Source of the DNA: a virus | Virus record (IMG/VR): IMGVR_UViG_3300028198_000256 | Coordinates: 51,004 to 115,003 of that record | Direction: 5' to 3' (one strand) | Length of the DNA stretch: 64,000 nucleotides | Shown here: piece by piece, positions 2,654 through 45,608 of the stretch | Layout: each line of letters begins with the position of its first letter | How positions within the stretch are numbered: the first letter of the stretch is position 1 | Made by a program: the position numbers and the translations under genes | The notes under the pieces: generated by a model | The model's input: only the letters and a program-made list of their open reading frames with translations | Database searches by the model: none | Told to the model about the DNA's origin: nothing

Positions 2654-4777
2654 TCACCTCAAATCTTTATCAAAATCATCTACCATAATTGATTCATGTT
2701 CTAAAATTCCATCTAATTCGCCTTTCAGATTAGACTCATATGCCCTTTCTAAAATATTTAATGCATCCTTTGTATTAGATGATGTAAAAGTTTTATCTGT
2801 CAACCTAGACCTTGCATCAAATCCTAATGCAGATTTAATTGAATTAGGAACATTGACCACCGACTTCACCATTCTACTATTCAACTTATCTGATGGACCC
2901 TTATATCTTCTACCAAATGGAAATATCAAACGTCTTAATATAAACCCAATGAACTTTGAAGGATAATTGTCTAAAATGTCCTCAAACGATTTCTGTATAT
3001 TATATAATCCAGACTCAGCACCCCATGTAACATATAATATATCATTCTTCTTATCCATATCATCAGTATCTTCGTAACGTTTTAATACCGCAGATGTCAT
3101 ATACAACTCTGAAAATGCATCTGCAAATCTACCAGTTATTCTTTGTCGTTTCTTAAGATCAGCACCCAACACCGATATACTTATATCAGATAACAATGCA
3201 AAGTTCTTTGATTCCAATTCAATACGTTTATAATACTTACCAATTTCACATGATGCGTCTTTTGGTTTAGATATAAACATACCACCAGTAATATTATGAT
3301 ATAATGACCCAAATATATTACCAATAGTATATTTAAGATGACCCATTAACGCCTTATTAAATGCAATCGCATCACCACATTCAGCAGAAGTTACTTCATC
3401 TTTTATAAATGGATGACACCGTAAAGATCCTTGAGAAAATACAATTAGAGATCTCGTTAATATATTCGCACCCTCAACAGTATTAGCAATAGGTTGTGTT
3501 ATATAATAATTCAATAATAAATTATTAGGACCATCAGATATACCCTTTCCAGCCAAAATGTCCATACCATCAATAATACATTGTCGCATCCTTTCAGTAC
3601 ATTGATATTTCAACATGGCAGAAATAACAGATGGTTTTTCACCATTTACTATTGCAGTAGTAGTGAGATTACACGCAGCCTCTACAACATAACATTGTCC
3701 AATTATCCTAGACAATGGCTCTTCAATACCTTCCATCTTGGAAATTGGAATTTTAAATTGTTTTCTTATCCTAGAATATGCAGTAGTAACTTTTAATGTA
3801 TGTTTAATACCAGCCATAGATAATGATGGTAATGATATTGCCCTACCAGCCGCAAGACACGCCATTAACATTCGCCAACCCTTTCCTACCCCATCAATTC
3901 CACCTATAACATGATTCAATGGTAAAAATACATCTTTACCATAATTTGGTCCATTCATAAATGCTTGTCTAGCAGGATAATGTCTGCGTCCTATACGAAC
4001 ACCCTTAGTATCAGTTGGAACTAATACTAAACTTATACCCTCAACAGGAGGCGAATGCTCAGATTCTTTCAATAACTCATCAGGATCCACAATATGACAC
4101 GCAACACCAAGTAATGTAGATACTGGTCCTAGTGTGATATATCGTTTTTCCCAATTTAATCTAATACCTAATACCTTTTCACCGTCATATTCCCCATATT
4201 CAACAACACCATAATCTTCCATCGCCGCAGCATCTGAACCAGAATATGGTCCTGTTAATGCAAATGCCGGTATATCTTTACCTGATGATAATGTAGGTAA
4301 CCATTTATCTTTTTGTTCTTGTGTGCCAAACTCATAAAGCAATTCACCAGGACCCAAAGAATTTGGAACCATAGTAGTAATTGCTAATGATATACTTCTT
4401 GATGCTAAAATTGATATGATACACGATTGTGCATATGCTGAAAATTCCAAACCACCATATTCTTTCTTGATATTAAGTGCAAAAAAACCATTATCTTTTA
4501 AATAATCCCACACCTCAACTGGTAAATCTTTATGTATAACATTAACTTCCCAATCAGACACCATTTCACAAACAGTATCAACTTCAGAGTTAATGAAATC
4601 ATGTTCTTCTTGTGTTAATTTAGTTTGTTCTGTATTTAATAATATATCCCAGTTTGGTCTACCACCAAATAACTCAGATTCCCACCATACTGTACCGGCA
4701 TCTAAAGCCTCTCTTTCAGTATTTGATATCTTTGGTAATATCTTTTGGAATAATTTCATACCATATTCATTCATCAT
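2654..4777 (-). CDS. fadE: Acyl-CoA dehydrogenase, FadE type, lacking the N-terminal membrane segment
   Basis: ISNTEREALDAGTVWWE, MVPNSLGPGELL, FALTGPYSGSDA, WEKRYITLGP, TVEGANILTRSL. Confidence 0.93.
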   Translation of the reverse strand: MMNEYGMKLFQKILPKISNTEREALDAGTVWWESELFGGRPNWDILLNTEQTKLTQEEHDFINSEVDTVCEMVSDWEVNVIHKDLPVEVWDYLKDNGFFALNIKKEYGGLEFSAYAQSCIISILASRSISLAITTMVPNSLGPGELLYEFGTQEQKDKWLPTLSSGKDIPAFALTGPYSGSDAAAMEDYGVVEYGEYDGEKVLGIRLNWEKRYITLGPVSTLLGVACHIVDPDELLKESEHSPPVEGISLVLVPTDTKGVRIGRRHYPARQAFMNGPNYGKDVFLPLNHVIGGIDGVGKGWRMLMACLAAGRAISLPSLSMAGIKHTLKVTTAYSRIRKQFKIPISKMEGIEEPLSRIIGQCYVVEAACNLTTTAIVNGEKPSVISAMLKYQCTERMRQCIIDGMDILAGKGISDGPNNLLLNYYITQPIANTVEGANILTRSLIVFSQGSLRCHPFIKDEVTSAECGDAIAFNKALMGHLKYTIGNIFGSLYHNITGGMFISKPKDASCEIGKYYKRIELESKNFALLSDISISVLGADLKKRQRITGRFADAFSELYMTSAVLKRYEDTDDMDKKNDILYVTWGAESGLYNIQKSFEDILDNYPSKFIGFILRRLIFPFGRRYKGPSDKLNSRMVKSVVNVPNSIKSALGFDARSRLTDKTFTSSNTKDALNILERAYESNLKGELDGILEHESIMVDDFDKDLR

Positions 4778-5066
4778 ATATCATACCTCTAAAATAAAAT
4801 AAAATCCACCACCCATACTATTATATATAACATTAATGGTATACCAAATGTCAATACAGACATCCAAACCGACTTAGTAACAGATTTACACAACCCATTA
4901 CATTGATAATTAATCTTTTCCCTTATTCTCTCCATCCTTGACTGTACTAATTCTTCCACTTTCTTTATTCTCCGTTTTTTGTTTATTATTAAATATCATA
5001 TCCCAATTATCTCTATATTGTTTATTACTTACTTTAGATTTTATAGAATCTCCTGTTATATCATTC

Positions 5067-5402
5067 TTAGCTACCATTTTCTATTTTTCTGTTTAATTTT
5101 TCTATTTTTCTGTTTAATTTGTCGCGATTCCGTTTAAGAGATTTAATCTCACGTTTTAAGTTTCTCACATCATCCAAATACCGGTTTGCATCATTTATAT
5201 CACCACATTTAGCCTCCATACGATTACCAATGCTCTGTAATTCCTCCAGTAATCCCATAACAATTGAAAAGTTTCGTGTTTTATAACAAGAACGCATTTC
5301 ATCTATCACAGTACAAAAATATCTATTTGCCATAAATTCCTCCTCATCTATCCAAATTTCTTTTTTCATATTAAGCAACCATTCTTGCAAATTCTTGTGC
5401 AA
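5067..5402 (-). CDS. Hypothetical coiled-coil protein
   Basis: ORF co-oriented with neighbours; heptad-like C-terminus. Confidence 0.6.
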   Translation of the reverse strand: MHKNLQEWLLNMKKEIWIDEEEFMANRYFCTVIDEMRSCYKTRNFSIVMGLLEELQSIGNRMEAKCGDINDANRYLDDVRNLKREIKSLKRNRDKLNRKIEKLNRKIENGS

Positions 5403-7551
5403 TCAACTTGTTAGATTTCTTGTTCTTTTGGAACTTTTTAAAATCACGTTTGATTGTATTCATTCTCTTACGGTCTGTTGTAAACAAAGGGTCATCATCA
5501 GCAACTGTTACAAATTCATCATCTTCTGCCTGTAACCGTTTATCATGAACCACAATGTAACGGTCATAAAACTCATTATCCGAATCAATTTTATCATGAA
5601 CAATATATCCCACTTTTGGATTAACCAATTTACGATATGATGTTAAGAAAAAACCAATTACATTATATCGTTTTCGTAATGCATCAAACATCGCCTTTTG
5701 ATATAATTTAGTTCTTGAATAATATGAATAAATACCACCCACGTTCGCCTCAAGTCTACCATAACCTTCAACATCAAAAACTACAACCTTTTGATCACCA
5801 TAACCCAAACTTTTAGTTCTGATATCTTGTGCCTGACCATCAGTCAGGAAAACCACATTCATCTTTTCAGTATTATGTTTCTTAACAAAATCATCCGCAA
5901 GAATTAATGAGTAAGCAGCAGTTTCAATTAATGGTGTTCCACCCATTGAAAACAGTTTCTCTTTCATCCAAGCATTACCACCTGTCAATGTTTCAGAAGA
6001 AAACATAACTCGTTGAGTCATTTTGTTCTGTTTACTCGTTGTCCAACTAGAATCGGCAATTTTAATCATTCCTAATGCATAATTGGCAAGGTCATATTTA
6101 CCATAATCTTCACCTTTACCAAACATGTTTCTTTTGCCATTATCTTTCCATTTTTTACCATTAGTAGTAAATGTATATAATTCATATGGAATACCAACAC
6201 GTTTCGCAAACATAATCAAAATAACAGACTGTTTTACGGTTTCATATAAACGACCCCACATAGAACTAGAGAAATCAACATACATCAATAATCCATGATT
6301 CTTAGCATCAGGAAATGACATGATTGACTTGAAAATATGATCGTCTAACTTATATTGCCACAATTTATCCACATCAATTGAACCACTTGTAGACTGTCTT
6401 GCCTTTCTTGATTCCATTGCAGATTTACGAAGTTCAAATTGTTGAACCATAGCATTTACTGCGGGTTTAACATCACGAATAAACTCTTTATATCTTACAT
6501 TAATGAACTCATCATGATAAATTTGCATAGCGGGTTGATTATTCTTCATTTCTAAGAATTCAGTATAACTTCTCTCCACCTCTTCATCAGTATATAAAAA
6601 CTCATTAACCAATTGTTCCTTTGTGAATTTAAGATATGAAGTACCACTACCCTCATTAATCATCTTATTTTCATTCTTTCTAAATGCATCATCAGTAACA
6701 GAATGATATGGATCTTCACCAGTAGTATCACCAGTATCAGAAAGTCCACCACCAGAAGAAGAAGAAACATTATCTTCTTCAACACTATTATCATCAGTAA
6801 CATTAGCATCAGCATCAGTATCAGAAGAACCAGATTCTAATGAGTCATCACCATCTTCTGAAGATTCAGTATCACCAACATCAGAATTTAAACTTTCAGA
6901 CAATCCAGAAGAATCTTCAGATTCTTCAGATTCTTCTGAATCACCAGAACCATCACTTGATTGTTGCTGCTGTTGCTGTTGTGGTTGCTGCTGTTCATCA
7001 AGAAACTCCATCAACTCACGTGAAACTCTAACTGTATCATCCCAAGTATCAATTTGAAATACTTTAGACATCATAACAGATTCTTTAAATGAAAACTTAA
7101 TATCAATAGTTTTTGATAACTTAGCCTTCAAATTCAATCTATCAAGAAATCCCAAAGTATCAACATCAACATCTTTAATACCAAAGAAATTATCTGCAAC
7201 TAAATGACGATATCCTTTTAGGAAATCATTAATTAATCCAGGATAAAATTCACGAACAAGACGTTCAATACGAACATCTTCAACAATATTTAAAATAGAA
7301 TGTGGTATATCTTCAATATCAGGTAATAACTTATTTATACTTTCATCATGACTGAAAATACTAGGTGTATATAATGCATGACCAACCTCATGTCCAATGA
7401 ACAGAGTGGCAGCATCTTTATATTCTTCTTTCAATAATGGCAATCTAAGAATACGATTAGTAGGGTCAAATGAAGCAGTTCTAAAATTACCCTCAATAAC
7501 TTCTAAATCTTCTCTTGCCATTAATTTGGAAAGTAGTGAAGTGTTTAACAT
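5371..7551 (-). CDS. Metallopeptidase-like (HExxH) plus VWA domain protein, CobT-like family of T4-like phages
   Basis: GHEVGH and NIVEDVRIE; acidic/polyQ linker; MIDAS elements DFSSSM, GGTPL, FLTDG. Confidence 0.8.
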   Translation of the reverse strand: MLNTSLLSKLMAREDLEVIEGNFRTASFDPTNRILRLPLLKEEYKDAATLFIGHEVGHALYTPSIFSHDESINKLLPDIEDIPHSILNIVEDVRIERLVREFYPGLINDFLKGYRHLVADNFFGIKDVDVDTLGFLDRLNLKAKLSKTIDIKFSFKESVMMSKVFQIDTWDDTVRVSRELMEFLDEQQQPQQQQQQQSSDGSGDSEESEESEDSSGLSESLNSDVGDTESSEDGDDSLESGSSDTDADANVTDDNSVEEDNVSSSSGGGLSDTGDTTGEDPYHSVTDDAFRKNENKMINEGSGTSYLKFTKEQLVNEFLYTDEEVERSYTEFLEMKNNQPAMQIYHDEFINVRYKEFIRDVKPAVNAMVQQFELRKSAMESRKARQSTSGSIDVDKLWQYKLDDHIFKSIMSFPDAKNHGLLMYVDFSSSMWGRLYETVKQSVILIMFAKRVGIPYELYTFTTNGKKWKDNGKRNMFGKGEDYGKYDLANYALGMIKIADSSWTTSKQNKMTQRVMFSSETLTGGNAWMKEKLFSMGGTPLIETAAYSLILADDFVKKHNTEKMNVVFLTDGQAQDIRTKSLGYGDQKVVVFDVEGYGRLEANVGGIYSYYSRTKLYQKAMFDALRKRYNVIGFFLTSYRKLVNPKVGYIVHDKIDSDNEFYDRYIVVHDKRLQAEDDEFVTVADDDPLFTTDRKRMNTIKRDFKKFQKNKKSNKLIAQEFARMVA

Positions 7552-7619: not shown

Positions 7620-8495
7620 TTATAAAAATTCATCCAATGTTGATACGTTACTCTTATAATTCATCAATAACAATTCCTTTCTTTTCTTTTGATTCTCCAC
7701 ATATGACGTTAACTGATTATTCATGGTGTATGTGAGATCCCATTCCTCTTGAGTCCATTCACTATACCATTCACGCAGAGTTGGATTGGAATTATATGTA
7801 ATCATACACGTATTACCAGACTTTGATACCTTTTCATAGAATTCTCTATGATTAAATCCTTTATGCATCGAACCATCCTTTCCATATAAAGAATCCTTGA
7901 TATCATATGGCGGATCCAGAAACAAAAATACATTCGGGTCATCATCAATTAATTCAGAATAATCTAGGTTCGTGATTTTCCAATTCTTGATAATCTTTCC
8001 GAATATTGTTAACGATTCTATTACCCTAAAGTTGAAACAATCTCTCATTGCCCATGTTGACATAGTACCAGATTCAGTTAAACCAGAGAAAGACATTCTA
8101 TTCATAGCATACCATCTCCATCCAACCTCAAATGGGTCTGTCTGATCTCCTATCTCCGATTTCATTTCATTGAACAATTCACGACTCTTGTCCACATCAT
8201 CTCCTACTGATTCCTTCTTTTTCTTTAAAATATTGACTAATTGTTCGGTATCACTCTGCAAAGTAATCCAGAAATAATATAGATTCTGATACTTATCATT
8301 TATATGAATGGGAATATTTGGGAATAAACGTGCAAATGCCAAGGAAGGAGACCCCCCACCACCGAAAGCATCTCGGTACTGGGTAATCTCCTTTATATTG
8401 GCTGGAAGTTTGGTATCATGAAACAAATACTTCATTGCCTTTGATTTACCACCTGGATACCTTAGTGGTGTTTTATAGTTGTTTAACGACCTCAC
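7620..8495 (-). CDS. dam: DNA adenine methyltransferase (Dam/D12 class)
   Basis: PLRYPGGKS, DAFGGGGS, FLDPPY; ends STLDEFL. Confidence 0.9.
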   Translation of the reverse strand: MRSLNNYKTPLRYPGGKSKAMKYLFHDTKLPANIKEITQYRDAFGGGGSPSLAFARLFPNIPIHINDKYQNLYYFWITLQSDTEQLVNILKKKKESVGDDVDKSRELFNEMKSEIGDQTDPFEVGWRWYAMNRMSFSGLTESGTMSTWAMRDCFNFRVIESLTIFGKIIKNWKITNLDYSELIDDDPNVFLFLDPPYDIKDSLYGKDGSMHKGFNHREFYEKVSKSGNTCMITYNSNPTLREWYSEWTQEEWDLTYTMNNQLTSYVENQKKRKELLLMNYKSNVSTLDEFL

Positions 8496-10363: not shown

Positions 10364-10879
10364 TTAAGTTTTACACTTAGATGAGTGAACATCCACCGTT
10401 TCCTTCACACACGTTAATGATTCAATCGTAACTTCTCCTGGATATGGCCAAGTTTGTCTTGGTGGCAATTTCCCCACCTGACTCCCATTATCATACCACC
10501 GTTCACCATATGCCATTTGATTAACAGGGTCTACCGTATCAAGAAAAGTAACTACTGTGGGGAAATACCCACTTTCAATTAACTGCAAATGATATTCCCA
10601 AGTAACTGTACCATATGCAACTATTATAACGTTATCACCAACATCACATAATTTTGCTGCGGCACCATTCACTGAAATAGTAAAAGATCTTTCATCGGGG
10701 ATTGCATATGTTGTGAATCTCTCACCATTATTAATATTATATATTTCAATTTGTTGATAAGGTAATATATTCGACTTCTCTAATATATCATTGGAAATAC
10801 CACAAGAACCCTCATAATCAATATCACATTCTGTAATTGTTGCACCGTGTATTTTTGATTTTAATATCTGTATTTCCAT
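10364..10879 (-). CDS. panD: Aspartate 1-decarboxylase with C-terminal extension
   Basis: KSKIH, YEG/SC autocleavage site, NGERFTTYAI, NGAAA. Confidence 0.92.
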   Translation of the reverse strand: MEIQILKSKIHGATITECDIDYEGSCGISNDILEKSNILPYQQIEIYNINNGERFTTYAIPDERSFTISVNGAAAKLCDVGDNVIIVAYGTVTWEYHLQLIESGYFPTVVTFLDTVDPVNQMAYGERWYDNGSQVGKLPPRQTWPYPGEVTIESLTCVKETVDVHSSKCKT

Positions 10880-10881
10880 AA

Positions 10882-11684: not shown

Positions 11685-11690
11685 TTACAC

Positions 11691-12857: not shown

Positions 12858-12866
12858 AATATTCCT

Positions 12867-13217: not shown

Positions 13218-13219
13218 GA

Positions 13220-13468: not shown

Positions 13469-13477
13469 AATTATTCC

Positions 13478-13963
13478 TTAACATCTGTTATTATATCTAT
13501 AAATACCATCATCAATTACTCTCTTAGCCTCTGAATTATCACCCCACCCATTAACTTTTGCCCACTTGTTTTCATCTAAATCCTTATAATGTTCAAAGAA
13601 ATGATATATACTCTCCAACTGGTCAATCGGAACATCTATAATATCATACCAATCAGAATATACCTCATCATCAGGTACTGCCAATATTTTAGGATCGTCA
13701 CCCGACTCATCTACCATATGGAGAACCCCAATGACATTACATAATATTTTGCAATTAGGTATTAATGGATATGGTGTTATTACCAAAACATCAACAGCAT
13801 CATTATCACCACCTATTGTATTTGGCAGACAACCATAATTGCAAGGATAGTGCATTGGTGTGTGTAAAAATCTATCAAATCTAAGCACACCCGTTTTATG
13901 ATCAACTTCATATTTAATATGTGAAGTTCCCATAGACATTTCAATCAATACGTCAATATTCAT
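13478..13963 (-). CDS. ppa: Inorganic pyrophosphatase, family I
   Basis: IKYE, YPCNYG, GDNDAVDV, DESGDDPKI, FFEHYKDL. Confidence 0.93.
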   Translation of the reverse strand: MNIDVLIEMSMGTSHIKYEVDHKTGVLRFDRFLHTPMHYPCNYGCLPNTIGGDNDAVDVLVITPYPLIPNCKILCNVIGVLHMVDESGDDPKILAVPDDEVYSDWYDIIDVPIDQLESIYHFFEHYKDLDENKWAKVNGWGDNSEAKRVIDDGIYRYNNRC

Positions 13964-14774: not shown

Positions 14775-14783
14775 AATATACTC

Positions 14784-15379: not shown

Positions 15380-16333
15380 TCATGATACTAACGCCTTTAA
15401 TGATTCACCATTACGAAATCTTCGTATCGTCTCCGATACCAAGTCCTTTACACTTATTACCTTTATCTTTGATGTCAACTCAGAAGTATGTTCTATGGAA
15501 TCTGTAATATACAAAGTCCCGATATCAGACTGTTCTATTCGTTCAATAGACTTTCCAGAAAAAACACCATGAACTGCAACACAATCAACCCTCACCGATC
15601 CAGACAACTTTAATGCCTCTGCAGCACCAACCAATGTTCCCCCACCATCAATCATATCATCTACTATAACACATTTTTTACCTTCAACATCACCAATAAC
15701 ATTCATAACTTCAGACATACCCGGCTCTGGTCGACGTTTATCAATAATTGCGATTGGTAAATTTAATTCCTTTGCAAAATACCTTGCACGACCAGAACCA
15801 CCCACATCAGCAGCAACCACAACATCCCAATAAGAAGGAACAATTGCGGCAACAATAGAATCCCTCATAGTTTTTAAAGCTGATATATGTTCACAAACAA
15901 CATTGTTATTAAAAAATGCTTGTGTTTGTAAAGAATGTAAATCCATACAGATTACTGAATTTATACCAGAATAACAGAGCATATTAGCAAACACCTTACC
16001 AGATATAGGACTTCTATTAGTACGTCTATCTTGTCTAGCATATGCATAATATGGGAATATAACATTAATAACAGATGGATTTGAACGTCTAACTGCATCA
16101 ATAAGTAACATCAATTCCATTATATCATTGTTTCTATTAGAACCTACCCCAGATTTAAATCCAGCTATAATAAAAACTTCCTCTAACCGAATGTTCTCCT
16201 TAATCTCTACATAAATCTCTGAATCAGGAAAATCTCTAATTTTCACCTTGGTCAATCTCATACCAAGATTCTCAGCAACTTGTTTGGCCAACTTTGTATT
16301 AGACCGTGTTGAAATTATTATAGATTTTTTCAT
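15380..16333 (-). CDS. prs: Ribose-phosphate pyrophosphokinase
   Basis: FPDSEI, PYYAYARQDRR, DLHSLQ, IIDKRR, VIVDDMIDGGGT. Confidence 0.95.
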   Translation of the reverse strand: MKKSIIISTRSNTKLAKQVAENLGMRLTKVKIRDFPDSEIYVEIKENIRLEEVFIIAGFKSGVGSNRNNDIMELMLLIDAVRRSNPSVINVIFPYYAYARQDRRTNRSPISGKVFANMLCYSGINSVICMDLHSLQTQAFFNNNVVCEHISALKTMRDSIVAAIVPSYWDVVVAADVGGSGRARYFAKELNLPIAIIDKRRPEPGMSEVMNVIGDVEGKKCVIVDDMIDGGGTLVGAAEALKLSGSVRVDCVAVHGVFSGKSIERIEQSDIGTLYITDSIEHTSELTSKIKVISVKDLVSETIRRFRNGESLKALVS

Positions 16334-18103: not shown

Positions 18104-18886
18104 CTATAGTTCTTCTGGATTACCCCTTGTCGATTCTAAATGTTCAGCCCACGCACAACAGTCATGATACCCTGATGATGAATGATCATTAAAAGAATCT
18201 ATTTCAAATTGCAATAATCCACCACACATACCCCATATATATTGTCCAATCAAATACATTCTAGAATATCCAGAAACAACCCTACCATTACAATCAAAAT
18301 ATTTTAATAATCCAATATGTCTGAATCCAACAAGTTCTAATGGGTGTCGTGTAACTATATCACAATTATTTTTAAATCTATAAAATGTTGGAGTAAACGA
18401 AGATGCAAAATCAGAATCACCCACTCTAGGCGACCCAAAAGTATATCCTATAGAATCTTTTCCACCAAATCGTGATGAGGCTAAAGTACATAAAGCAGCT
18501 CCCAAACTATGACCTGTAAAATATACATTCCTGTGTTTATCTCCGACTATTGAATAATCTACATAATGTTGAAACAAATCATCATATATCAAGTCTAATG
18601 CACCCTTAAACCCCCTATGAACACTACCAATACTGTCTGATTCAACCTTTCTAAATTTTATATCTGCCTCAATATCTGACAATTGTGTCGGTTCCGTCCC
18701 CCGAAATACATATATAATATCTTCATCATCCCATAATCCATAACATTGAGTAGACCCATTATTAAAAAACTTAATATCATATTTCTCTGAATATATTTCT
18801 GAGAAATCTGCAACATCCAAATAAGCATTCATAGACAATCCAGAAAAAAACGTTGCATTTTTATAACTAAATTCCCTATTTAACAT
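18104..18886 (-). CDS. Lipase, class 3
   Basis: VFRGT, VHRGF, TGHSLGAA, TFGSPRVG, NNCDIV. Confidence 0.9.
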   Translation of the reverse strand: MLNREFSYKNATFFSGLSMNAYLDVADFSEIYSEKYDIKFFNNGSTQCYGLWDDEDIIYVFRGTEPTQLSDIEADIKFRKVESDSIGSVHRGFKGALDLIYDDLFQHYVDYSIVGDKHRNVYFTGHSLGAALCTLASSRFGGKDSIGYTFGSPRVGDSDFASSFTPTFYRFKNNCDIVTRHPLELVGFRHIGLLKYFDCNGRVVSGYSRMYLIGQYIWGMCGGLLQFEIDSFNDHSSSGYHDCCAWAEHLESTRGNPEEL

Positions 18887-20178: not shown

Positions 20179-20479
20179 ATGCTTTTAACTTTAAATCTTC
20201 CTCCGTTACAATATCTTCATACCCATCATACTCACGAACATAAAACTTTAACCCCTCTGTAACATATGACAATCTCATATTATCAAACTCATATAAATTA
20301 TGAGTTGGTTCTGACATCTCCATCACCTGTTTATGAAATGATTTCTCATCCCCATGCAAAAATTCATAAATTAATTCAGCATCCATTCTAAGTGATTGGG
20401 GTTTAATGGAAAATCCACTACCCCAACCAGCATGTATAAGAACTCCTACTTTACCATCTGCACTATAATATTTGCCCAT
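20177..20479 (-). CDS. Conserved phage hypothetical protein
   Basis: GKVGVLI.AGWGSGFS and FYVREYDGYE pattern seen in phage proteins. Confidence 0.65.
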   Translation of the reverse strand: MGKYYSADGKVGVLIHAGWGSGFSIKPQSLRMDAELIYEFLHGDEKSFHKQVMEMSEPTHNLYEFDNMRLSYVTEGLKFYVREYDGYEDIVTEEDLKLKA

Positions 20480-22460
20480 CTAAATTCTCCACTAATTGTG
20501 CATCTTGAGAATGATATTGTTTAGTGATTTCTTTATCTGTTTCATCTGAATAATGTAATGGACCACCTCTAAATGGAGCAAATCCAGTACCAAAAATAAT
20601 ACCAGAATCTATAAGATCAGCAGACTCTACAATACCATCATACAAACATAATTTACACTCTCTAATAATTTTTTCAATTAACCTTGTCGTTATCTCTATT
20701 TTAGGATCCGCATAAACCGCATCCACGGGTTTACCTTTGTCATATATGTAAAACCCACTACCAGATTTAATACCCAATTTACCCTTGTCTACTAACTTCT
20801 TTAATCTTTTTGGAACAGTAATTCCAAGATCCTCACTTATTATATCCGTAACAAAATAACAAACATCAAGTCCTACAGTATCTGCCAATAATAATGGACC
20901 CATTGGCATACCAAAATCAGTAAAAGAATTGTCAATTTCTTCTTTACTATATCCCTCATCCAACATATTAATAGCCTCAATAAGTGTAGGCATTAACACA
21001 CGATTAACTAAAAATCCTGGACTCGATTTGACTTTTAATGGTAACTTATCAATATGTCTACAAAATGACATAGACTTCTCTATAACATCCTCTGATGTAA
21101 TATCTGAATATACCACTTCAACCAAAGGCATTTTTGCAACTGGATTAAAGAAGTGTATACCAACTAATCTCTCAGGATTTTTCATTTCACTTGATAATAC
21201 TTCCAACTTGATAGAAGATGTATTAGTGCCCAATATAGCAGTACGTTTCATTTCAGATTCTAATTCACTATATAATTGACGTTTAATATCCGCATTTTCA
21301 ACAATAGCTTCAATGACTATATCTGCGGAAGATATACCATATCCATTTTTATCAGGAATCAACCTATCATACACGTCATTGATTAAATAATCCTTTCCAG
21401 AAAATCTTTTTACATAAAATTTATACGATCTTTTCATTGCGGCAGCTATGGTGTTATCATCAATATCTTGTAAAGTCACCTTATATCCCCTTAGAGCCGC
21501 CCACATTGCAATGTCTCCACCCATTACACCAGCACCTATAACGTGGACATGTTTAAGATCTAACTTAGATTTATCACCAGAAGATTTAAGTAAATCCTGT
21601 AACATAAACACTCGTAATAAATTCTTTGCAGTATCTGTCATTGCTAACTTAGAAACCGACTCCGCCTCTGCATTCATAAAATGATGCTCATCATATCCAT
21701 ATTTTTCCCATATATCAACTAAAGCATATGGAGCAGGATAATGTTGTTTATTTGCCTCTTTCCTTAAATTTCTACGTATCTGCATTGATAATAACTTTCT
21801 ACCAATACCAGAATTCAATACAGAATCTAATTTATCTGGTCGTCTAACGGGAGGACACTTTGCAAGTACATCTTCCGCAGATTTAACTAATAAACGTTCA
21901 GGAACTGCATAATCAACTAATCCCATCTTTTTTGCCTGATATACTGATAAAGTACGTCCACTTAACATCATACCCATAGCCTTAATAACACCAAGAACTC
22001 TAATAGACCTAACAGAACCACCAAATCCAGGATGTATCCCCAACTTAACTTCAGGAAATCCGACTCGGATATTAGGAGAATCTAATATAATTCTATAATC
22101 ACATGATAATGCAAGTTCCAATCCACCACCAAGACACAATCCATTAATTAATGCCAATGTAGGAAATTCCATATCATCAATTAACCACATCACTTCTTGT
22201 CCTTTAGTAATGGCTTCATAAGCATCATCATACTCATGGAAATCCTTAAATTCTGTAACATCAGCACCAGCAATAAACCCAGTTGATTTATCAGAACAAA
22301 TAACCATACCATCAGGATTATCAGATTTAACCTCTAATAATACATCTTTTAATTCCGTTAATACTTCACCAGATAATACATTCATACTACCATAAGAATA
22401 ATCAAAATGTACCCATGCTATATTGTTAGAATATTTTAATTTAAAATGTTTATAATTCAT
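20463..22460 (-). CDS. fadJ: Multifunctional enoyl-CoA hydratase / 3-hydroxyacyl-CoA dehydrogenase (FadJ/FadB)
   Basis: FIAGADV, CLGGGLELAL, PEVKLG, VIGAGVMGG, TNTSS, GIHFFNPV, GMPMGP. Confidence 0.93.
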   Translation of the reverse strand: MNYKHFKLKYSNNIAWVHFDYSYGSMNVLSGEVLTELKDVLLEVKSDNPDGMVICSDKSTGFIAGADVTEFKDFHEYDDAYEAITKGQEVMWLIDDMEFPTLALINGLCLGGGLELALSCDYRIILDSPNIRVGFPEVKLGIHPGFGGSVRSIRVLGVIKAMGMMLSGRTLSVYQAKKMGLVDYAVPERLLVKSAEDVLAKCPPVRRPDKLDSVLNSGIGRKLLSMQIRRNLRKEANKQHYPAPYALVDIWEKYGYDEHHFMNAEAESVSKLAMTDTAKNLLRVFMLQDLLKSSGDKSKLDLKHVHVIGAGVMGGDIAMWAALRGYKVTLQDIDDNTIAAAMKRSYKFYVKRFSGKDYLINDVYDRLIPDKNGYGISSADIVIEAIVENADIKRQLYSELESEMKRTAILGTNTSSIKLEVLSSEMKNPERLVGIHFFNPVAKMPLVEVVYSDITSEDVIEKSMSFCRHIDKLPLKVKSSPGFLVNRVLMPTLIEAINMLDEGYSKEEIDNSFTDFGMPMGPLLLADTVGLDVCYFVTDIISEDLGITVPKRLKKLVDKGKLGIKSGSGFYIYDKGKPVDAVYADPKIEITTRLIEKIIRECKLCLYDGIVESADLIDSGIIFGTGFAPFRGGPLHYSDETDKEITKQYHSQDAQLVENLDGQIL

Positions 22461-22463
22461 AAT

Positions 22464-23768
22464 TTATCTCTTTAAATTTTCAACTAATATTGCACCACCT
22501 TGTCCATGTCCAATACATAAAGATGCAACCCCATAATGTCCACCACTTGATTCTAACGTCTTAATTAAATGATATACTATCCGTGTTCCAGAAGCACCTA
22601 CAGGATGTCCTATACTAATAGAACCACCATGAACATTTAATTTTTCATCAGGTATTAACCCAAATGGTTCATTCAATCCAAACTCAGATAAACAATAATC
22701 TGCATCATTCATTGCCCTTGTACAACCAATAACTTGTGATGCAAAAGCTTCATTTAATTCCCAACTATCAATATCATCACATCGTAACCCATTTCTCATA
22801 ACAAGAGGAACTATTGACTGAACTGGTCCCAATCCCATCTCTGATGGATCTACTCCAGCCCACTTAGTATCAATAATTTTTGCAATAGCTTTATCACGTA
22901 ACCCATACTTATCCAAGGCATCCTCACTTGCCAACAAAACAAATGAAGCACCATCCGTAATAGGTGAAGAATTACCCGCAGTCACATTACCAAATATTTT
23001 ATCAAAAACTGGTCTTAATTTCCCTAATTTTTCAATAGTGTTCTTGGATCTAACAGATTCATCTTTATTGTAAAAATTCCCATCAGTATCATATATAGTA
23101 ACAATCTCATCCTCTAATACATTAGTATTTTGTGAGATAGACGCTTTCATATGACTATCTAATGAATAAGCATCCATATCATTTCTAGATATATTAAACT
23201 TATATGCCAAATTCTCGGCAGTCTGTCCCATTGATAAATTAATAGTTGGATCTTTTAATGCACGTAATAAACTAATCACTGGAACTAATAACTTAGGTCT
23301 AAACTTAAGTAACACAGACAACTTCTTAGAAAATGTCTTAGCTAATGTAAATTCAGACAACCACATAGTCATATCATCATTAAATAATAATGGTGCCCTA
23401 CTCATAGTTTCCGTACCACCAGCAATAATCAAATCAGACTGTCCACAAGATATACTCCTATATGCCGAATCAATTGACTGCAAACCAGAAGCACAATTTC
23501 GTTGTACCGTATATGCCGGTATATTAACATTAAGTCCTAATCGTAATGCTAACAATTTTGCAATATTACACTCATCGGCGTTGGGGTTCATGCAACCAAC
23601 AACCAATTCATCCACATCATCATTACCAATATCATTACGAATCAACATAGGTCTAACCACCTGAATAGCCAAATCCAATGCCTTAAACTTTCCAGGACTT
23701 CCTTTAGCCTTTAAAAAAGGTGTCCTACTACCATCTACAATATATACATCATTTAACTTATATTTCAT
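22464..23768 (-). CDS. fadI: Acetyl-CoA acyltransferase (3-ketoacyl-CoA thiolase, FadI/FadA)
   Basis: RNCASG, TAGNSSPITDGA, NEAFA, GHPVGASG, CIGHGQG. Confidence 0.93.
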   Translation of the reverse strand: MKYKLNDVYIVDGSRTPFLKAKGSPGKFKALDLAIQVVRPMLIRNDIGNDDVDELVVGCMNPNADECNIAKLLALRLGLNVNIPAYTVQRNCASGLQSIDSAYRSISCGQSDLIIAGGTETMSRAPLLFNDDMTMWLSEFTLAKTFSKKLSVLLKFRPKLLVPVISLLRALKDPTINLSMGQTAENLAYKFNISRNDMDAYSLDSHMKASISQNTNVLEDEIVTIYDTDGNFYNKDESVRSKNTIEKLGKLRPVFDKIFGNVTAGNSSPITDGASFVLLASEDALDKYGLRDKAIAKIIDTKWAGVDPSEMGLGPVQSIVPLVMRNGLRCDDIDSWELNEAFASQVIGCTRAMNDADYCLSEFGLNEPFGLIPDEKLNVHGGSISIGHPVGASGTRIVYHLIKTLESSGGHYGVASLCIGHGQGGAILVENLKR

Positions 23769-38040: not shown

Positions 38041-38069
38041 ATAATACCACAATATGACTCAAATGTCAA
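38041..38069 (-). promoter_or_regulatory. Sigma70-type early promoter upstream of tRNA(CAU)
   Basis: TTGACA-17 nt-TATTAT with TG. Confidence 0.75.
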
Positions 38070-40341
38070 GTCTTTTTTCAATAAACATTGAAATTCTTTC
38101 CCATATTAAATCAGAATTATTATACAATATACCATGACAATCAGAACCAATAATATGCATTTCTTTATCTACAGAAGATATATTATTATATATATAATCA
38201 GCACCATCTACTGAAACTAATGTGTCATCCTTAGAATAAATGACCAACATAGGTATTGTTACATCACATAAACACTTCTTCACACTTTTAACTAATTTAC
38301 CTATTTCATATATACTACGTGTGGGAACTAACCAATAATTAATATGTTCATTCTCTGGAATATTCTTAAAAAAAGGTTTCACTCCATTATTCCCTATCAC
38401 CAAACCCACCACCCTATTAACATAATGAACTAATGGTGCAAATTTAACCCGGAAATCCGTATAAAAAAATGGAGCTGATATAACAACTACTGATTTAACT
38501 CTATAATCAGAAGAAAATTCTTCACGTAATGCAATAAGTCCGCCAGTAGAAAATCCAACAATCACAATATTTTCAGATAACATAGAAGTTATTTGAAAAT
38601 ACTCGTATACTGATTTAATCCAATCTTCATAACTATATGATAACAAATCATAAGGTGATGTACCATGTCCAACTATTCTTGCACCAACTACAATATATCC
38701 TATACCACATAAATATTCACCAAAACCTCTAACTTCATATGGAGATGACAATAATCCATGGATTAATAACACAACAATACCATTAGACTTCTTAGGAAAT
38801 AGAATAAATGGTTTATTATCAGAAGAATTAATACCATCAAATTTAGAATTATATTTATCATTAATATACATATTCTTATCGTACTCATATGACAACTGTT
38901 GGTCGTCCAATAAATGCATTGCAATATCTTTGTTACTAATAGTATCTACACTTTCAACAATCTTATTAATAACTTTACCAACAATAGAAACCGGCTGTAC
39001 TTCATTATAATATACAACTAATAAATTCTCAACCCTAACCGTCAACGGATCTACACCAGAATCAAAATTACCAGATAAATATATAACATCACCACCAATA
39101 ATTAGCAATCCTTGTTTTTCAAGAGAATCAATATACTTAATCATGTTAACATTATTACCATTTAATATATCACCATATATATTAGGTCGCATTAAACCAT
39201 CGTGCAACCTCACTCCTGATTTATGTTGTAATGTTTTTAATGTTAAATATAACTCCTTATAAAGTGTTTTCTTATTTACAAATGATATATTTTGTTTGAA
39301 TCTATACATCAATAAACAAGATGTCAGATGGCTTAAATTAATAGTAACATAAGAATAAATACTTTTAGTGTAAAAGTCACGTGTAACATTAGAACACTTT
39401 ATGAGATGTTTATGCAACATCTCACCTTTCCAAGACTTATCAACACTACCAATAGAAAACACATCATCTAAGGATTTTATAGAATCAGTAAATGTTTCAG
39501 TTAAAGATGACTTCCATGAATGCCAAATACCGGAGGTAGATATCACTTTACTCATAACAACATCCATATCAGTATCTTTAGTAATTAAATTCCCCTCAAC
39601 TATCAATTCTTCTGTTTGTCGTAATGTAAGTCCATTAGAAATATATTCAACAGCCTTCAATAAAACATTATCAGTCGCACGTAAAGGATAAAACGTTATA
39701 TTAGATGCAACTATATTAGTAGGTATTTCTACTGCTGCCAATAACTCATCCAAACTATGAAAATCTAATTCCTTTTGCCACATTAATAATCTATCCATAT
39801 CCATATCTCTATGAGCATTACGAACTATGAACTTAAACACCTCCAACCCATGTGACAAAACAGCTGCACCAGTATGTTGTTTCCGCACTTTCATGGTTGT
39901 TTGACATAACATATTATAATGTCCTTCATCATCAACAACCCGATGATCCTTTACCATCCCACCTTCAGGGAAAATAACTACTTTATGACCATGTAATATT
40001 TGTTTTGCTAATATAGAAAACAACCTTGGATGATCATGTGGTACAACCCCCAACTTCGTTAAATACGATGACAATATACCATCATTTTTAAAAAATTCAC
40101 CAGAACCAACAGAATAACAATAACTACCATTTTCTTCATGTATCAAATATTGAGGAATAAATGTTTCTATACGAGAAAAATGATTAAATACAAATATACT
40201 ACCATCATTTATATTACACGCAGAATGAATATTAACATTCATGCGTAACACTTTCTTCATAATACGAAATGCTCGTAAAGACAAACGATACATACGTTTG
40301 TCTATATCAACCCAATCATGATTATACTTAGAAAGTTTCAT
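38059..40341 (-). CDS. Glycerolipid acyltransferase (PlsB/C-like) fused to an alpha/beta hydrolase
   Basis: N-terminal NHFSRIET and IFPEGG; C-terminal LIHGL, GHGT, GFSTGG, D and H triad candidates. Confidence 0.8.
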   Translation of the reverse strand: MKLSKYNHDWVDIDKRMYRLSLRAFRIMKKVLRMNVNIHSACNINDGSIFVFNHFSRIETFIPQYLIHEENGSYCYSVGSGEFFKNDGILSSYLTKLGVVPHDHPRLFSILAKQILHGHKVVIFPEGGMVKDHRVVDDEGHYNMLCQTTMKVRKQHTGAAVLSHGLEVFKFIVRNAHRDMDMDRLLMWQKELDFHSLDELLAAVEIPTNIVASNITFYPLRATDNVLLKAVEYISNGLTLRQTEELIVEGNLITKDTDMDVVMSKVISTSGIWHSWKSSLTETFTDSIKSLDDVFSIGSVDKSWKGEMLHKHLIKCSNVTRDFYTKSIYSYVTINLSHLTSCLLMYRFKQNISFVNKKTLYKELYLTLKTLQHKSGVRLHDGLMRPNIYGDILNGNNVNMIKYIDSLEKQGLLIIGGDVIYLSGNFDSGVDPLTVRVENLLVVYYNEVQPVSIVGKVINKIVESVDTISNKDIAMHLLDDQQLSYEYDKNMYINDKYNSKFDGINSSDNKPFILFPKKSNGIVVLLIHGLLSSPYEVRGFGEYLCGIGYIVVGARIVGHGTSPYDLLSYSYEDWIKSVYEYFQITSMLSENIVIVGFSTGGLIALREEFSSDYRVKSVVVISAPFFYTDFRVKFAPLVHYVNRVVGLVIGNNGVKPFFKNIPENEHINYWLVPTRSIYEIGKLVKSVKKCLCDVTIPMLVIYSKDDTLVSVDGADYIYNNISSVDKEMHIIGSDCHGILYNNSDLIWERISMFIEKRLDI

Positions 40342-41378
40342 AATGTTAAAAAACCATCAAGTGTCGGAATATTCTTACGTTCAATCTCAGTATTAACATT
40401 CTCTTTAGTTATCTTAAAAAACTGTTCTGATGCTTCAAATCCAATATACTTTCTACCAAGTTGTGATGCTCTAACTAATGTAGTTCCTGTGCCAGAAAAG
40501 GGGTCAAGAACAACACCACCTACTGGACAACCCGCAATTATAGGTTTATCAATTAATTCTGAATTATATGAAGCAAGGTGTGAAGAACGATTACCCTTTA
40601 TCGTGATATTCCAAAAATCAGACACATCACCCGGGTTCTTTCCTTTTGGATTTAATGAAGTATTACCACTATTGTATTCATCAATATCACGTCCACCATT
40701 CTTTGGTCTAGAAAGAGTTTGAGCGGAACTCACCCCAATACCAGTAGAATACTTATTTTCATTAGTACCACGTAAGGCTCTTTTAATAGAAGTAGTCATA
40801 TTCTCATCACGAATAGAATCAAGGTCAAAATAATAACCTTTAGGTTTCTTCGTCATTAAAAAGATATATTCGTGTTTCTTTGAGAATCTATCACGAACCG
40901 ATTCAGGCATACCATTTCTCTTTGCCCAGATTATATCATTACGAATAGTCCATCCACGGTCATAACAACCAATAGCAAATCTATGAGGAATCAATAATAA
41001 ACTTTTAGGTTTCAAATCAGATGGTTGGTTAATCTTCATACCACCCAAATAATCACCAGTTCTACTTCCAGTATGACCAGTATTAAGTCCACCAGATTTA
41101 GTAGAATATGTATCACCAAGATTGATCCATACAGTACCAGTATCTTTTAAAACTCTATGAATTTCATCCATCATTTCCCATAAATGTTCAAGATATTCTT
41201 GGAATGTGGGTTCTAATCCCCACTGACCATCAAACCCATAATCCCTTAATTGCCAATATGGTGGTGACGTAATGACACAATCAATAGAATTATCATCTAA
41301 CTTTTTGAAACCTTCCATGATGTCACAATTATATATTTTATCCAAATTAAACCCCCCACTATATTCATAGTATACCAC
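40338..41378 (-). CDS. DNA methyltransferase (SPPY, N4-cytosine type); real start probably the TTG of LDKIY
   Basis: TSPPYW, WINLGD, IIWAKRN, VLDPFSGTGTT; ends PTLDGFLTL. Confidence 0.88.
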   Translation of the reverse strand: MVYYEYSGGFNLDKIYNCDIMEGFKKLDDNSIDCVITSPPYWQLRDYGFDGQWGLEPTFQEYLEHLWEMMDEIHRVLKDTGTVWINLGDTYSTKSGGLNTGHTGSRTGDYLGGMKINQPSDLKPKSLLLIPHRFAIGCYDRGWTIRNDIIWAKRNGMPESVRDRFSKKHEYIFLMTKKPKGYYFDLDSIRDENMTTSIKRALRGTNENKYSTGIGVSSAQTLSRPKNGGRDIDEYNSGNTSLNPKGKNPGDVSDFWNITIKGNRSSHLASYNSELIDKPIIAGCPVGGVVLDPFSGTGTTLVRASQLGRKYIGFEASEQFFKITKENVNTEIERKNIPTLDGFLTL

Positions 41379-44319: not shown

Positions 44320-44327
44320 TATTTATA
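44320..44327 (-). promoter_or_regulatory. T4-type late promoter TATAAATA
   Basis: Exact TATAAATA in the intergenic gap, 26 nt before the ATG at 44293. Confidence 0.6.
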
Positions 44328-44330
44328 ATA

Positions 44331-45608
44331 TTAAAACTGTTCCTCTTCAGTAGAACCATCCATAGCAGTAACCGATGAGTTACCACCTTGTATAACATTT
44401 GTAACAGAATCAAAATAACCAGCACCAACTTCCTCTTGATGCCTTGCAAATGTATATCCATCTTTAACCGAATTAAACTCAGGTTCTTGGACACCCTCCA
44501 CATAAGCAGTCATACCACGTTCAACATAATCTTTTGACAACTCAAACATAGAATGCCACATATCATGAATACCAGCCAGCGTAATAAATTGCCACTTGAA
44601 CCCCATCTCTCCCAATTTTTGTTGATAGTGTGCTATTTCTTCGTCGCTCAAATTCTTCTTCCAATTAAAAGACGGTGAGCAGTTATAAGCCAGCAACTTG
44701 CCAGGATACTGTTGGTGTATCGCAGTCGCAAATTTTTGAGCCTCTTCTAAATTCGGCACCGCAGTTTCACACCAAAGCATATCAGCATAAGCCGCATAAG
44801 ATAATCCCCTTGATATCGCTTGGTCTATTCCGCAGTTGACTCTAAAAAAACCCTCTTCAGTTCTCTCCCCTGTGACGAATTCCTTGTCACGAACATCAAT
44901 ATCAGATGTCAGCAAAGTTGCTGCGTTAGCATCTGTCCTTGCGATAATAACGATAGGCACACCCATAACATCAGATGCCAATCTCGCGGATACTAGTTTC
45001 TGGATTGCCTCTTGGGTTGGCACTAACACCTTACCACCCATGTGTCCACATTTCTTAGCAGATGACAGTTGATCTTCTAAATGAATACCAGACACACCAC
45101 ACTCTATCATAGATTTAGTCAACTCATAAGAGTTCAACACCCCCCCAAACCCAGCCTCAGCATCTGCGATAATTGGAGCAAAGTAATCAATATCATTTCT
45201 TCCCTTATTCCATTGGATTTCATCTGCTCTACGGAATGTATTATTAATACGTCTTACCATCATTGGTACTGAATTATATGCATATAATGATTGATCTGGA
45301 TACATAGTTTCTGACGAATTACCATCAGCAGCAACTTGCCAACCTGATAAATATATAACCTTAATACCAGCCTTAACTTGTTGCATTGCCTGTCCAGCAG
45401 TTATAGCACCCATAGAATTAACATATCCATCTTCGTTAATCAATTTCCAAAGTTTTTTAGAACCCACGGTAGACACTGTATATTCTTCATCAAACGAACC
45501 ACTTAACCTAATAACATCTTCTGCCGAATAATCACGTTTGACATTCAACCAACGCTCATTCTCTCTCCAATCTTTCTCTAAAGTTCGAACTCTACCCAAT
45601 TGTTCCAT
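44331..45608 (-). CDS. aceA: Isocitrate lyase
   Basis: [58 protein letters not shown]. Confidence 0.97.

Follow-up and report, generated by a model that had tools for sequence, protein, structure and literature searches.

A probable auxiliary module for acyl-chain catabolism in an uncultured marine lineage of T4-like phages

The auxiliary metabolic genes known from marine phages serve mainly photosynthesis and the pentose phosphate pathway, or act in the metabolism of nucleotides, sulfur and phosphate. A 115-kb viral contig from IMG/VR (record IMGVR_UViG_3300028198_000256) raises the question of whether a tailed phage may also draw on lipid. The window analysed here is the 64,000-nucleotide stretch from position 51,004 to position 115,003 of that record, and all coordinates refer to it. 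As reported by the first-pass annotation, six open reading frames for lipid catabolism and isocitrate lyase (ICL) are interleaved there with T4-like genes on the same strand; all six were confirmed to lie on the minus strand and to have intact catalytic residues, among T4-like replication genes. Between them lie gp43, gp41, gp44, gp45, gp46, UvsX, RNase H and gp61, as well as the nucleotide-metabolism genes NrdA, NrdB and ThyX, and phage genes are found on both sides of every lipid gene. The reading favoured here, with a probability of roughly 0.65, is that the contig represents an uncultured marine lineage of T4-like myoviruses that has long carried an auxiliary module for acyl-chain catabolism, run along the route proposed below. 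With a complete beta-oxidation cycle, a tailed phage would gain control over lipid as a further fuel and source of carbon; this would matter most in dark or low-oxygen waters, where an infected cell has few other resources.

A FadE-type acyl-CoA dehydrogenase of 707 residues (2654..4777, minus strand) contains all four domains of the family in Pfam (Acyl-CoA_dh_N, M and 1 and the bacterial ACDH_C domain) and reaches 911 bits against NF007000 (PRK09463), for which the cut-off is 600. Of 220 columns that are near-invariant in bacteria it keeps 186, among them those of the TVEGANILTR motif with Glu435, the putative catalytic base by analogy with other acyl-CoA dehydrogenases. Enoyl-CoA hydratase and 3-hydroxyacyl-CoA dehydrogenase domains (ECH_1, 3HCDH_N and 3HCDH) are combined in a single protein of 665 residues (20463..22460, minus strand) that aligns over its full length with E. 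coli FadJ (8bnu), in comparison with which it keeps both hydratase Glu motifs, GxGxxG and the His of HFFNP, plus the Glu and the Asn. Because it falls below the equivalog cut-offs of both FadJ (NF008363, 496 bits against 869) and FadB (465 bits against 870), it was filed as FadJ/FadB-like and not as FadJ. Its gene lies 3 nucleotides downstream of that of a 3-ketoacyl-CoA thiolase of 434 residues (22464..23768, minus strand), in which both thiolase domains and the Cys, His and Cys motifs NCASG, GHP and CIGHG are intact. The thiolase passes the PRK08170-type model NF006030 (606 bits against 593), fails the FadI model NF006516 (313 bits against 560) and matches the beta subunit of the mitochondrial trifunctional enzyme (6dv2_A) over its full length. 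Of the names proposed in the first pass, FadE and isocitrate lyase stand, both proteins passing their cut-offs, and FadJ and FadI proved too specific. The phage enzymes are compact and diverged.

Two further proteins are lipase-like. A class 3 lipase of 260 residues (18104..18886, minus strand) scores 68 bits against Pfam Lipase_3 (cut-off 22), and its Ser, within GHSLG, Asp and His align with the triad of the fungal lipase 1dt3, which places it in the family. The other is a fusion of 760 residues (38059..40341, minus strand) that joins a PlsC-like acyltransferase (Pfam Acyltransferase, residues 36-135, with NHFSRIE and FPEGG motifs and no transmembrane segment) to a monoacylglycerol-lipase-like hydrolase (Hydrolase_4, residues 523-740). 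The hydrolase domain at the C-terminus resembles structures of monoacylglycerol lipase and Est30 (7e04, E 2e-24), and its Ser, Asp and His are intact. Finally, an ICL of 425 residues (44331..45608, minus strand), encoded 21 nucleotides downstream of nrdA, reaches 737 bits against NF011645 (cut-off 562) and carries the KKCGH active-site motif. Domain content and catalytic residues thus support the view, already taken in the first pass, that all four beta-oxidation activities are encoded together with lipases and ICL.

Several other metabolic genes were observed on the same strand of the window. An alanine dehydrogenase (936..2045; TIGR00518, 393 bits against a cut-off of 392) belongs to the same gene string as FadE and is a possible NAD+/pyruvate link. 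The aspartate 1-decarboxylase PanD (10364..10879; Pfam Asp_decarbox, 123 bits) falls slightly below the cut-off of TIGR00223 (105.7 bits against 106); its product, beta-alanine, is on the route to CoA. There are also an inorganic pyrophosphatase (13478..13963; Pfam Pyrophosphatase, 172 bits) and a PRPP synthetase (15380..16333; Pfam Pribosyltran_N and Pribosyl_synth), the latter a likely sink for gluconeogenic carbon. Two candidate lipid genes were rejected. The TPP enzyme at 16330-18060, considered as a 2-hydroxyacyl-CoA lyase of alpha-oxidation, belongs instead to the 2-keto-acid decarboxylase family, as kin of KdcA and of phenylpyruvate/pyruvate decarboxylase, and scores under every equivalog cut-off. 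The 726-residue open reading frame upstream of FadE (5371-7551) matches the phage gene phrog_459, which is annotated as a peptidase.

That such cellular-type genes were found in a metagenome assembly without terminal repeats would be expected if cellular DNA had been misassembled onto phage DNA or if the contig were a cellular island. On the contrary, viral contigs from many separate metagenome datasets, more than 15 in all, share the same genes and the same junctions with phage genes. Viral loci number 11 for the thiolase-FadJ pair, 13 for FadE and 12 for the ICL of this lineage, and the junctions are conserved even in a second sub-lineage whose gene order differs. GC content and codon usage are uniform along the contig, and the GC3 and codon usage of the lipid genes match those of the phage core genes. 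The six genes are under purifying selection, with dN/dS values (0.04-0.28) similar to those of core genes: 0.12 for FadE, 0.12-0.20 for the FadJ-like enzyme, 0.10-0.15 for the thiolase, 0.14-0.25 for the class 3 lipase and 0.04-0.06 for ICL, the highest being those of the fusion (0.20-0.28). When the clades were checked as proposed in the first pass, FadE and the FadJ-like enzyme each fell into a phage-only clade with a support of 100. Their best bacterial homologues share about 50% and about 57% identity, respectively; a FadJ-like group at 59-62% identity also exists. Host-identical sequence, named in the first-pass annotation as an observation that would speak against its claim, was not seen, the metabolic proteins being 50-76% identical to any bacterial protein found. 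As the junctions recur, codon usage matches, dN/dS is low and the clades are restricted to phages, misassembly is effectively excluded, and the reading of the contig as a chimera or a cellular island is close to refuted. These are cellular-type genes that lie between phage genes and recur in related phages, in line with what defines auxiliary metabolic genes of phages.

The closest bacterial homologues of ICL share 73-76% identity with it, and the ICLs of this lineage group with gammaproteobacterial ones, separately from other viral ICLs. A canonical glyoxylate shunt (aceA plus aceB) is not encoded, as there is no malate synthase. The first pass had noted the absence of FadD, ETF and malate synthase from the window, and this holds beyond it: no FadD or other acyl-CoA synthetase, ETF or malate synthase was found in the whole 115-kb contig or in five related records, nor was a malate thiokinase, FadL or FadR found in the contig. 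For these functions a pathway must rely on enzymes of the host or on the part of the genome, roughly 36%, that the contig lacks; acyl-CoA oxidation by FadE would be coupled to the respiratory chain. Outside the window, the contig encodes a malyl-CoA lyase, a hotdog thioesterase, a malate dehydrogenase and a PEP synthase. The malyl-CoA lyase gene, 11 kb beyond the window, is conserved in relatives at 89-97% identity, and its product gives full-length matches to 5ugr (E 8e-100) and 4l9y. Both PEP synthase and malate dehydrogenase score above their equivalog cut-offs; the former occurs in the second sub-lineage at 86-87% identity, and the latter was not found in the fragments of the relatives. 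Malyl-CoA lyase and a thioesterase together act as an apparent malate synthase (Rhodobacter Mcl1/Mcl2; human CLYBL). The phage malyl-CoA lyase could likewise condense ICL-derived glyoxylate with acetyl-CoA, a thioesterase then yielding malate; the candidate thioesterase of the phage differs in having a hotdog fold instead of being a CitE paralogue. Malyl-CoA lyase thus probably fills the malate synthase gap, and together with the thioesterase, malate dehydrogenase and PEP synthase it suggests a variant glyoxylate bypass toward gluconeogenesis and nucleotide synthesis. As the lyase reaction is reversible, the direction of flux is inferred.

Because the lipase, beta-oxidation and ICL genes are all intact, the phage can probably draw both energy and building blocks from lipid while it infects. 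In the proposed route, the cytoplasmic class 3 lipase and the monoacylglycerol-lipase-like domain of the fusion would free fatty acids from glycerolipid, and host FadD would activate them to acyl-CoA. The FadE-type dehydrogenase and the trifunctional-enzyme-like pair of thiolase and hydratase-dehydrogenase would then run the full beta-oxidation cycle, delivering acetyl-CoA along with NADH and reduced flavin, on which host respiration could draw. ICL would supply glyoxylate, malyl-CoA lyase would condense it with acetyl-CoA and the thioesterase would release malate, from which phage malate dehydrogenase and PEP synthase would drive carbon toward gluconeogenesis. PRPP synthetase and the nucleotide enzymes could finally channel this carbon into phage DNA. 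If expressed during infection, the module would affect host metabolism. The first pass had proposed that the phage burns host membrane or storage lipid. The analysis supports that the genes are phage-borne, intact, under purifying selection and conserved in the lineage; ICL in T4-like marine phages had already been published, and the malate synthase gap is probably covered. The burning of host lipid is itself an inference and not a result, because it depends on which lipid is used (membrane, storage or external fatty acids) and on an activation step for which no FadD is encoded.

The same enzymes may serve other ends. Both lipases could instead act on the envelope, in lysis, superinfection exclusion or membrane remodelling, so that the module would comprise only FadE, the FadJ-like enzyme, thiolase and ICL. 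The fusion gene adjoins DNA methylases and is 15-35 kb away from the fad genes, its architecture is that of a widespread bacterial family of unknown function, and its dN/dS is the highest of the set. Nevertheless, neither protein has a transmembrane segment or, judged by eye and by a hydrophobicity scan, an N-terminus resembling a signal peptide (the class 3 lipase has no strongly hydrophobic segment), and in four unrelated viral contigs a Lipase_3 gene is the direct neighbour of ICL, which suggests a functional connection. A purely envelope-directed role is somewhat improbable, though deserving of some weight. It is unlikely, in turn, that the lipases are unrelated to the cycle and that the host's own lipid is spared, the beta-oxidation and glyoxylate enzymes easing bottlenecks in a host already feeding on external fatty acids, hydrocarbons or further substrates that yield acyl-CoA. 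Host catabolism would then be kept going after the shutdown of host transcription, as with cyanophage psbA. This would fit the lack of encoded FadD and FadL, by which uptake and activation must be host functions, the dispersal of the lipid genes among replication genes instead of in one operon, and the fact that the closest bacterial relatives are marine Gammaproteobacteria with fad genes of their own. However, at least two lipase-like hydrolases, perhaps three, are conserved beside the cycle and show no obvious signal peptide, and in one relative lipase, ICL and FadE lie much nearer one another.

The substrate could also be a short- or medium-chain storage polyester (PHA), or another short acyl-CoA, in place of long-chain lipid. 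The thiolase indeed matches an acetyl-CoA C-acetyltransferase model, and the hydrolase domain weakly matches an intracellular short-chain-length PHA depolymerase (36 bits against a cut-off of 300). Since PHB needs no FadE-type dehydrogenase, the hydrolase is a far better match to monoacylglycerol lipases and the thiolase and its partner resemble the subunits of the long-chain trifunctional enzyme, this origin of the acyl chains is very unlikely. A more speculative extension of the favoured route, which is doubtful, concerns the acyltransferase domain of the fusion. Run in reverse, it might serve as a CoA-dependent transacylase that yields acyl-CoA from phospholipid without FadD or ATP, the lipase domain clearing the lysolipid, with ICL, malyl-CoA lyase and the hotdog thioesterase replacing malate synthase. 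If so, the lineage would turn membrane phospholipid into nucleotide precursors almost unaided, bypassing two canonical enzymes; with beta-oxidation, malate dehydrogenase, PEP synthase and PRPP synthetase, this route would surpass in completeness every catabolic-to-anabolic carbon route known from tailed phages.

The phage set has the same four activities, domain order and catalytic residues as bacterial aerobic/anaerobic beta-oxidation (E. coli FadE with FadB-FadA or FadJ-FadI), the thiolase-first gene order of E. coli fadIJ, and full-length matches to the 6dv2 subunits of the mitochondrial trifunctional enzyme. Unlike in bacteria, the genes are split over three places among the replication genes of a lytic-type T4-like phage, FadD, FadL and FadR are lacking, and both subunits fall below the FadJ/FadI equivalog cut-offs. 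Viral ICL is already published and common in IMG/VR. It was noted in viruses of Pelagibacter and Woeseiales (PMC10721903), and TARA_ERS478052_N000008, a 179-kb T4-like environmental viral genome, carries an aceBA operon (Nishimura et al. 2017, PMC5332604). The latter is likewise marine, of similar estimated size and equipped with ICL as an auxiliary gene; it has aceBA, whereas the phage described here has malyl-CoA lyase and no malate synthase. Relative to the published ICL phages, a full beta-oxidation cycle and lipases are added, a combination that is absent from 36 other ICL-bearing viral records.

In parallel, lipid-fed energy metabolism has been proposed for giant viruses such as Prymnesium kappa virus RF01, which encodes a lipase and an acyl-CoA dehydrogenase, and enoyl-CoA hydratase and beta-ketothiolase were undetected in giant viruses according to a 2022 review (PMC9270025). 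The phage, in contrast, has the hydratase and the thiolase and lacks the acyl-CoA synthetase present in PkV RF01. Viral fatty-acid oxidation and glyoxylate-shunt genes were also proposed to provide energy on the basis of fadB, fadL and aceAB signals in Pacific Ocean viromes, fadB and aceAB being seen as reads only and not among the contig-validated genes (Hurwitz et al. 2013, PMC4053976). The present loci place such genes in phage genomes, with their neighbours and evolution, and give contig-level support to the 2013 signals of fadB and aceAB. In INPHARED, the cycle was matched only by distant homologues and by records resembling bacterial DNA. The whole set of lipases, beta-oxidation cycle and ICL was found in no deposited phage genome and in none of the papers searched, in agreement with the first pass, which knew of no such tailed phage.

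Clues to the host conflict with one another. For the FadJ-like enzyme, ICL and malyl-CoA lyase, the nearest named homologues come from Methylococcales, Thiotrichales and Thioglobus. The phage also encodes a permuted tmRNA, a form typical of Alphaproteobacteria and cyanobacteria, and its sole phage match at the DNA level covers a short part of the nrdB of a Pelagibacter phage. Regarding promoters, the T4 late-promoter motif TATAAATA shows no enrichment (13 occurrences, with 21.6 expected), and sigma-70-like sites overall are not above chance in the promoter scan. The best of these sites are located in the intergenic gaps that precede the thiolase, lipase and FadE genes, no more than a hint.

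The lipid-catabolism and glyoxylate genes form a real, conserved and phage-encoded module. The IMG/VR viral contig that carries them (115,003 bp, 64% complete as estimated by CheckV, no terminal repeats found) has a GC content of ~0.32 that is even along its length and bears nearly every gene on the minus strand; the window makes up its right-hand 64 kb. A T4-like replication set is present in the window, comprising gp43 polymerase, gp41 helicase, gp61 primase, gp44 clamp loader and gp45 clamp, along with gp46/47, UvsX and RNase H, as well as genes for NrdA, NrdB-glutaredoxin, ThyX and a dUTPase-family protein. Genes for the baseplate proteins gp5, gp6, gp25 and gp53, as well as for gp32 and gp59, lie in the left half of the contig. 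Because its gp43 polymerase shares no more than 47% identity with any INPHARED record, the best matches being Phage C48C1 (Kyanoviridae) and cyanomyoviruses, the contig is assigned on sequence grounds to a distant, uncultured T4-like lineage.

All six open reading frames of the first-pass annotation were recovered on the minus strand at their exact coordinates and with the expected domains, yet two of their names could not be kept. The FadE-type dehydrogenase (2654-4777) passes the FadE-type subfamily model of NCBIfam (911 bits for a cut-off of 600) and isocitrate lyase (ICL, 44331-45608) exceeds its equivalog cut-off (737 versus 562 bits). On the contrary, the thiolase called FadI (22464-23768) scores 313 bits against a FadI cut-off of 560 and passes instead the PRK08170 model (606 versus 593); the trifunctional-enzyme beta subunit is a full-length match. 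In the same way, the bifunctional hydratase-dehydrogenase called FadJ (20463-22460) reaches 496 bits for FadJ and 465 for FadB, below NCBIfam cut-offs of ~870, and is better described as FadJ-like.

Judged from the alignments, catalytic residues are intact in all enzymes examined. In the bifunctional enzyme the two glutamate motifs of the hydratase are retained, as are the GxGxxG NAD site and the histidine of HFFNP; the thiolase retains its Cys, His and Cys motifs. The FadE-type protein keeps 186 of 220 near-invariant bacterial columns and the glutamate of its TVEGANILTR motif, which by analogy to other acyl-CoA dehydrogenases is taken as the catalytic base. A Ser-Asp-His triad is retained in the Lipase_3 enzyme (18104-18886) and a triad also in the C-terminal domain of the acyltransferase-hydrolase fusion (38059-40341), whose closest matches are bacterial monoacylglycerol lipases (7e04, E 2e-24). 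Neither lipase contains a transmembrane segment, nor did inspection by eye and a hydrophobicity scan reveal a signal-peptide-like N-terminus in either.

Assembly artefact or host DNA is effectively excluded as the origin of these genes. Searches recovered the thiolase-FadJ-like pair from 11 viral loci (57-100% identity), beside phage genes every time, FadE from 13 and the ICL of this lineage from 12; the loci stem from many different metagenome datasets, some being separate parts of one contig. A second sub-lineage, best represented by IMGVR_UViG_3300009703_000019 (60.9 kb), has the same genes in another order, with FadE between nrdA and nrdB and the pair after a PD-(D/E)XK nuclease gene, and ICL and FadE are adjacent in another relative. 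The two also lie side by side on DQME01000048.1 (locus L104, 5.7 kb), which is binned in a Gammaproteobacteria MAG. Its ICL is 92% and its FadE 86% identical to those of this lineage, and the contig most likely represents phage DNA that was binned wrongly. Pairwise dN/dS values against relatives (FadE 0.12, FadJ-like enzyme 0.12-0.20, thiolase 0.10-0.15, ICL 0.04-0.06, lipase 0.14-0.25, fusion 0.20-0.28) lie in the same range as those of the phage core (NrdA 0.06-0.14, gp41 0.21). The fad genes agree with the phage core in GC3 and codon usage (r = 0.94-0.96), ICL being somewhat GC-richer (0.40, r = 0.85).

Host-identical sequence, which the first-pass annotation had regarded as a sign of misassembly, was not observed among the closest bacterial proteins found. 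Among GTDB species representatives, the closest bacterial FadE is ~50% identical, the nearest named FadJ-like relatives, from Methylococcales MAGs, 55-57%, and gammaproteobacterial ICLs 73-76%. Phage-specific clades were recovered for FadE (a single one with all phage sequences, support 100, long stem) and for the FadJ-like enzyme (support 100) but not for ICL, which groups with the gammaproteobacterial enzymes (support 99). Its position apart from other viral ICLs suggests that this lineage acquired it separately and later.

As had been noted, FadD, ETF and malate synthase are not in the window; moreover, no AMP-binding acyl-CoA synthetase, ETF or canonical malate synthase was found in the whole contig or in five related records. 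Weak malate-synthase matches in relatives led to a 320-aa malyl-CoA/beta-methylmalyl-CoA lyase with an HpcH/HpaI lyase domain, encoded on the minus strand ~11 kb before the window (contig 39050-40012; L186:1050-2012 in locus numbering). It shows full-length matches to the solved malyl-CoA/beta-methylmalyl-CoA lyases 5ugr (E 8e-100) and 4l9y (E 8e-83), is 89-97% identical to its counterparts in relatives and is closest in bacteria to 'CoA ester lyases' of Methylococcales and Nitrosomonas (66-68%). This enzyme probably takes the place of the absent malate synthase. The left half also encodes, among gp32, gp59 and baseplate genes (contig 20004-33745; loci L185 and L186), PEP synthase (1101 bits, cut-off 598), malate dehydrogenase (418 bits, cut-off 271), FtsH, a hotdog-fold thioesterase, cyclophilin and a second Hydrolase_4 enzyme. 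The PEP synthase of the second sub-lineage shares 86-87% identity with this one; no malate dehydrogenase turned up in the relatives' fragments.

What is observed directly is the gene content, the intact active sites and the selection; from these we infer enzyme activity, flux direction, lipid source and timing. In the most likely mechanism, the lipases would release fatty acids that host FadD would activate, and phage FadE with the trifunctional-enzyme-like pair would drive the beta-oxidation cycle, its reducing equivalents passing to host respiration. Acetyl-CoA would enter a variant of the glyoxylate bypass that consists of ICL, malyl-CoA lyase and thioesterase. Malyl-CoA lyase catalyses a reversible reaction; the condensing direction is favoured because no malate thiokinase was found in the contig and a phage thioesterase is present. 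Malate dehydrogenase and PEP synthase could then direct carbon to gluconeogenesis and further to nucleotides via PRPP synthetase, a PurN-like formyltransferase, quinone-dependent dihydroorotate dehydrogenase, Nrd and ThyX, all in the window, with PanD (a CoA precursor step), pyrophosphatase and alanine dehydrogenase as possible helpers. PanD, the dihydroorotate dehydrogenase, inorganic pyrophosphatase, an FTR1-family iron permease and PRPP synthetase are clustered at 10364-16333 (minus strand). A TPP-dependent 2-keto-acid decarboxylase (16330-18060, minus strand), KdcA, phenylpyruvate or pyruvate decarboxylase-like and below all equivalog cut-offs, is conserved beside the PRPP synthetase and lipase genes.

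The module belongs to the known class of auxiliary metabolic genes, and its ICL part has precedents. ICL in marine T4-like phages is already published: an aceBA operon was described in a complete 179-kb viral genome (Nishimura et al. 2017, PMC5332604), and ICL was recorded for Pelagibacter and Woeseiales viruses (PMC10721903). In IMG/VR, ICL was found in 78 viral loci. Outside this lineage, ICL without malate synthase is the usual state (35 of 36 ICL-bearing viral records, the remaining one having it), and none of the 36 contains 3-hydroxyacyl-CoA dehydrogenase or acyl-CoA dehydrogenase. Two near-complete jumbo phage genomes, L043 (337 kb) and L045 (321 kb), likewise carry ICL without malate synthase or either dehydrogenase. 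Since four otherwise unrelated viral contigs (L083, L084, L085, L098) have a Lipase_3 homologue (27-29% identical) immediately upstream of ICL, the lipase-ICL link seems to recur beyond this lineage.

Reads of fadB, fadL and aceAB were reported in Pacific viromes, fadB and aceAB being outside the set validated on viral contigs (Hurwitz et al. 2013, PMC4053976). For giant viruses, a 2022 review names genes for lipase, acyl-CoA synthetase and acyl-CoA dehydrogenase and states that enoyl-CoA hydratase and beta-ketothiolase were undetected (PMC9270025). Strong full-length INPHARED matches to the three Fad proteins are all in records resembling bacterial DNA filed as phage; such records (CAKLQH02..., CAKLQF02..., AGRM01..., AFYI01..., e.g. 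'Acinetobacter phage MD-2021a') hold chromosomal bacterial fadB, fadE, paaJ and aceA and yield false 'phage' matches for metabolic genes. Other matches are distant or partial, for instance an acyl-CoA dehydrogenase of Microcystis phage MaAM05 (24% identity) and an unannotated faecal contig. Full-text literature searches found no phage genome described with a complete beta-oxidation cycle. The earlier impression that no tailed phage had been described with the whole set agrees with both searches, and the complete cycle and its combination with malyl-CoA lyase and PEP synthase appear undescribed.

Methylococcales, Thiotrichales or Thioglobus are among the closest named homologues of the FadJ-like enzyme, ICL and malyl-CoA lyase, which points to a marine gammaproteobacterial donor and perhaps to such a host. 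However, a permuted tmRNA lies between the lipase and FadJ-like genes (19733-20178, minus strand; Rfam RF04321, 89.9 bits, cut-off 47; no ARAGORN call). Permuted tmRNAs are typical of Alphaproteobacteria and cyanobacteria and unusual on a phage, and this one is at odds with the gammaproteobacterial relationships seen in the metabolic genes. The GC content of 0.32 resembles that of SAR11 phages and also counts against a gammaproteobacterial host.

A weak tRNA-like match is present at 9761-9831 (minus strand, 29.9 bits, at cut-off, no ARAGORN call). Four DNA methyltransferase genes, one D12-class and three N6_N4_Mtase, lie at window 7620-8495, 35658-37139 and 40338-41378 (minus strand) and contig 48255-49187, and a Mom-family protein is encoded at 47-946 (minus strand, 157 bits). 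Finally, full-length DnaK (HSP70, 825 bits) and DnaJ are encoded directly upstream of the thiolase gene (24158-27100, minus strand); DnaK is 95-97% conserved among relatives, while DnaJ is just ~59% identical in some.
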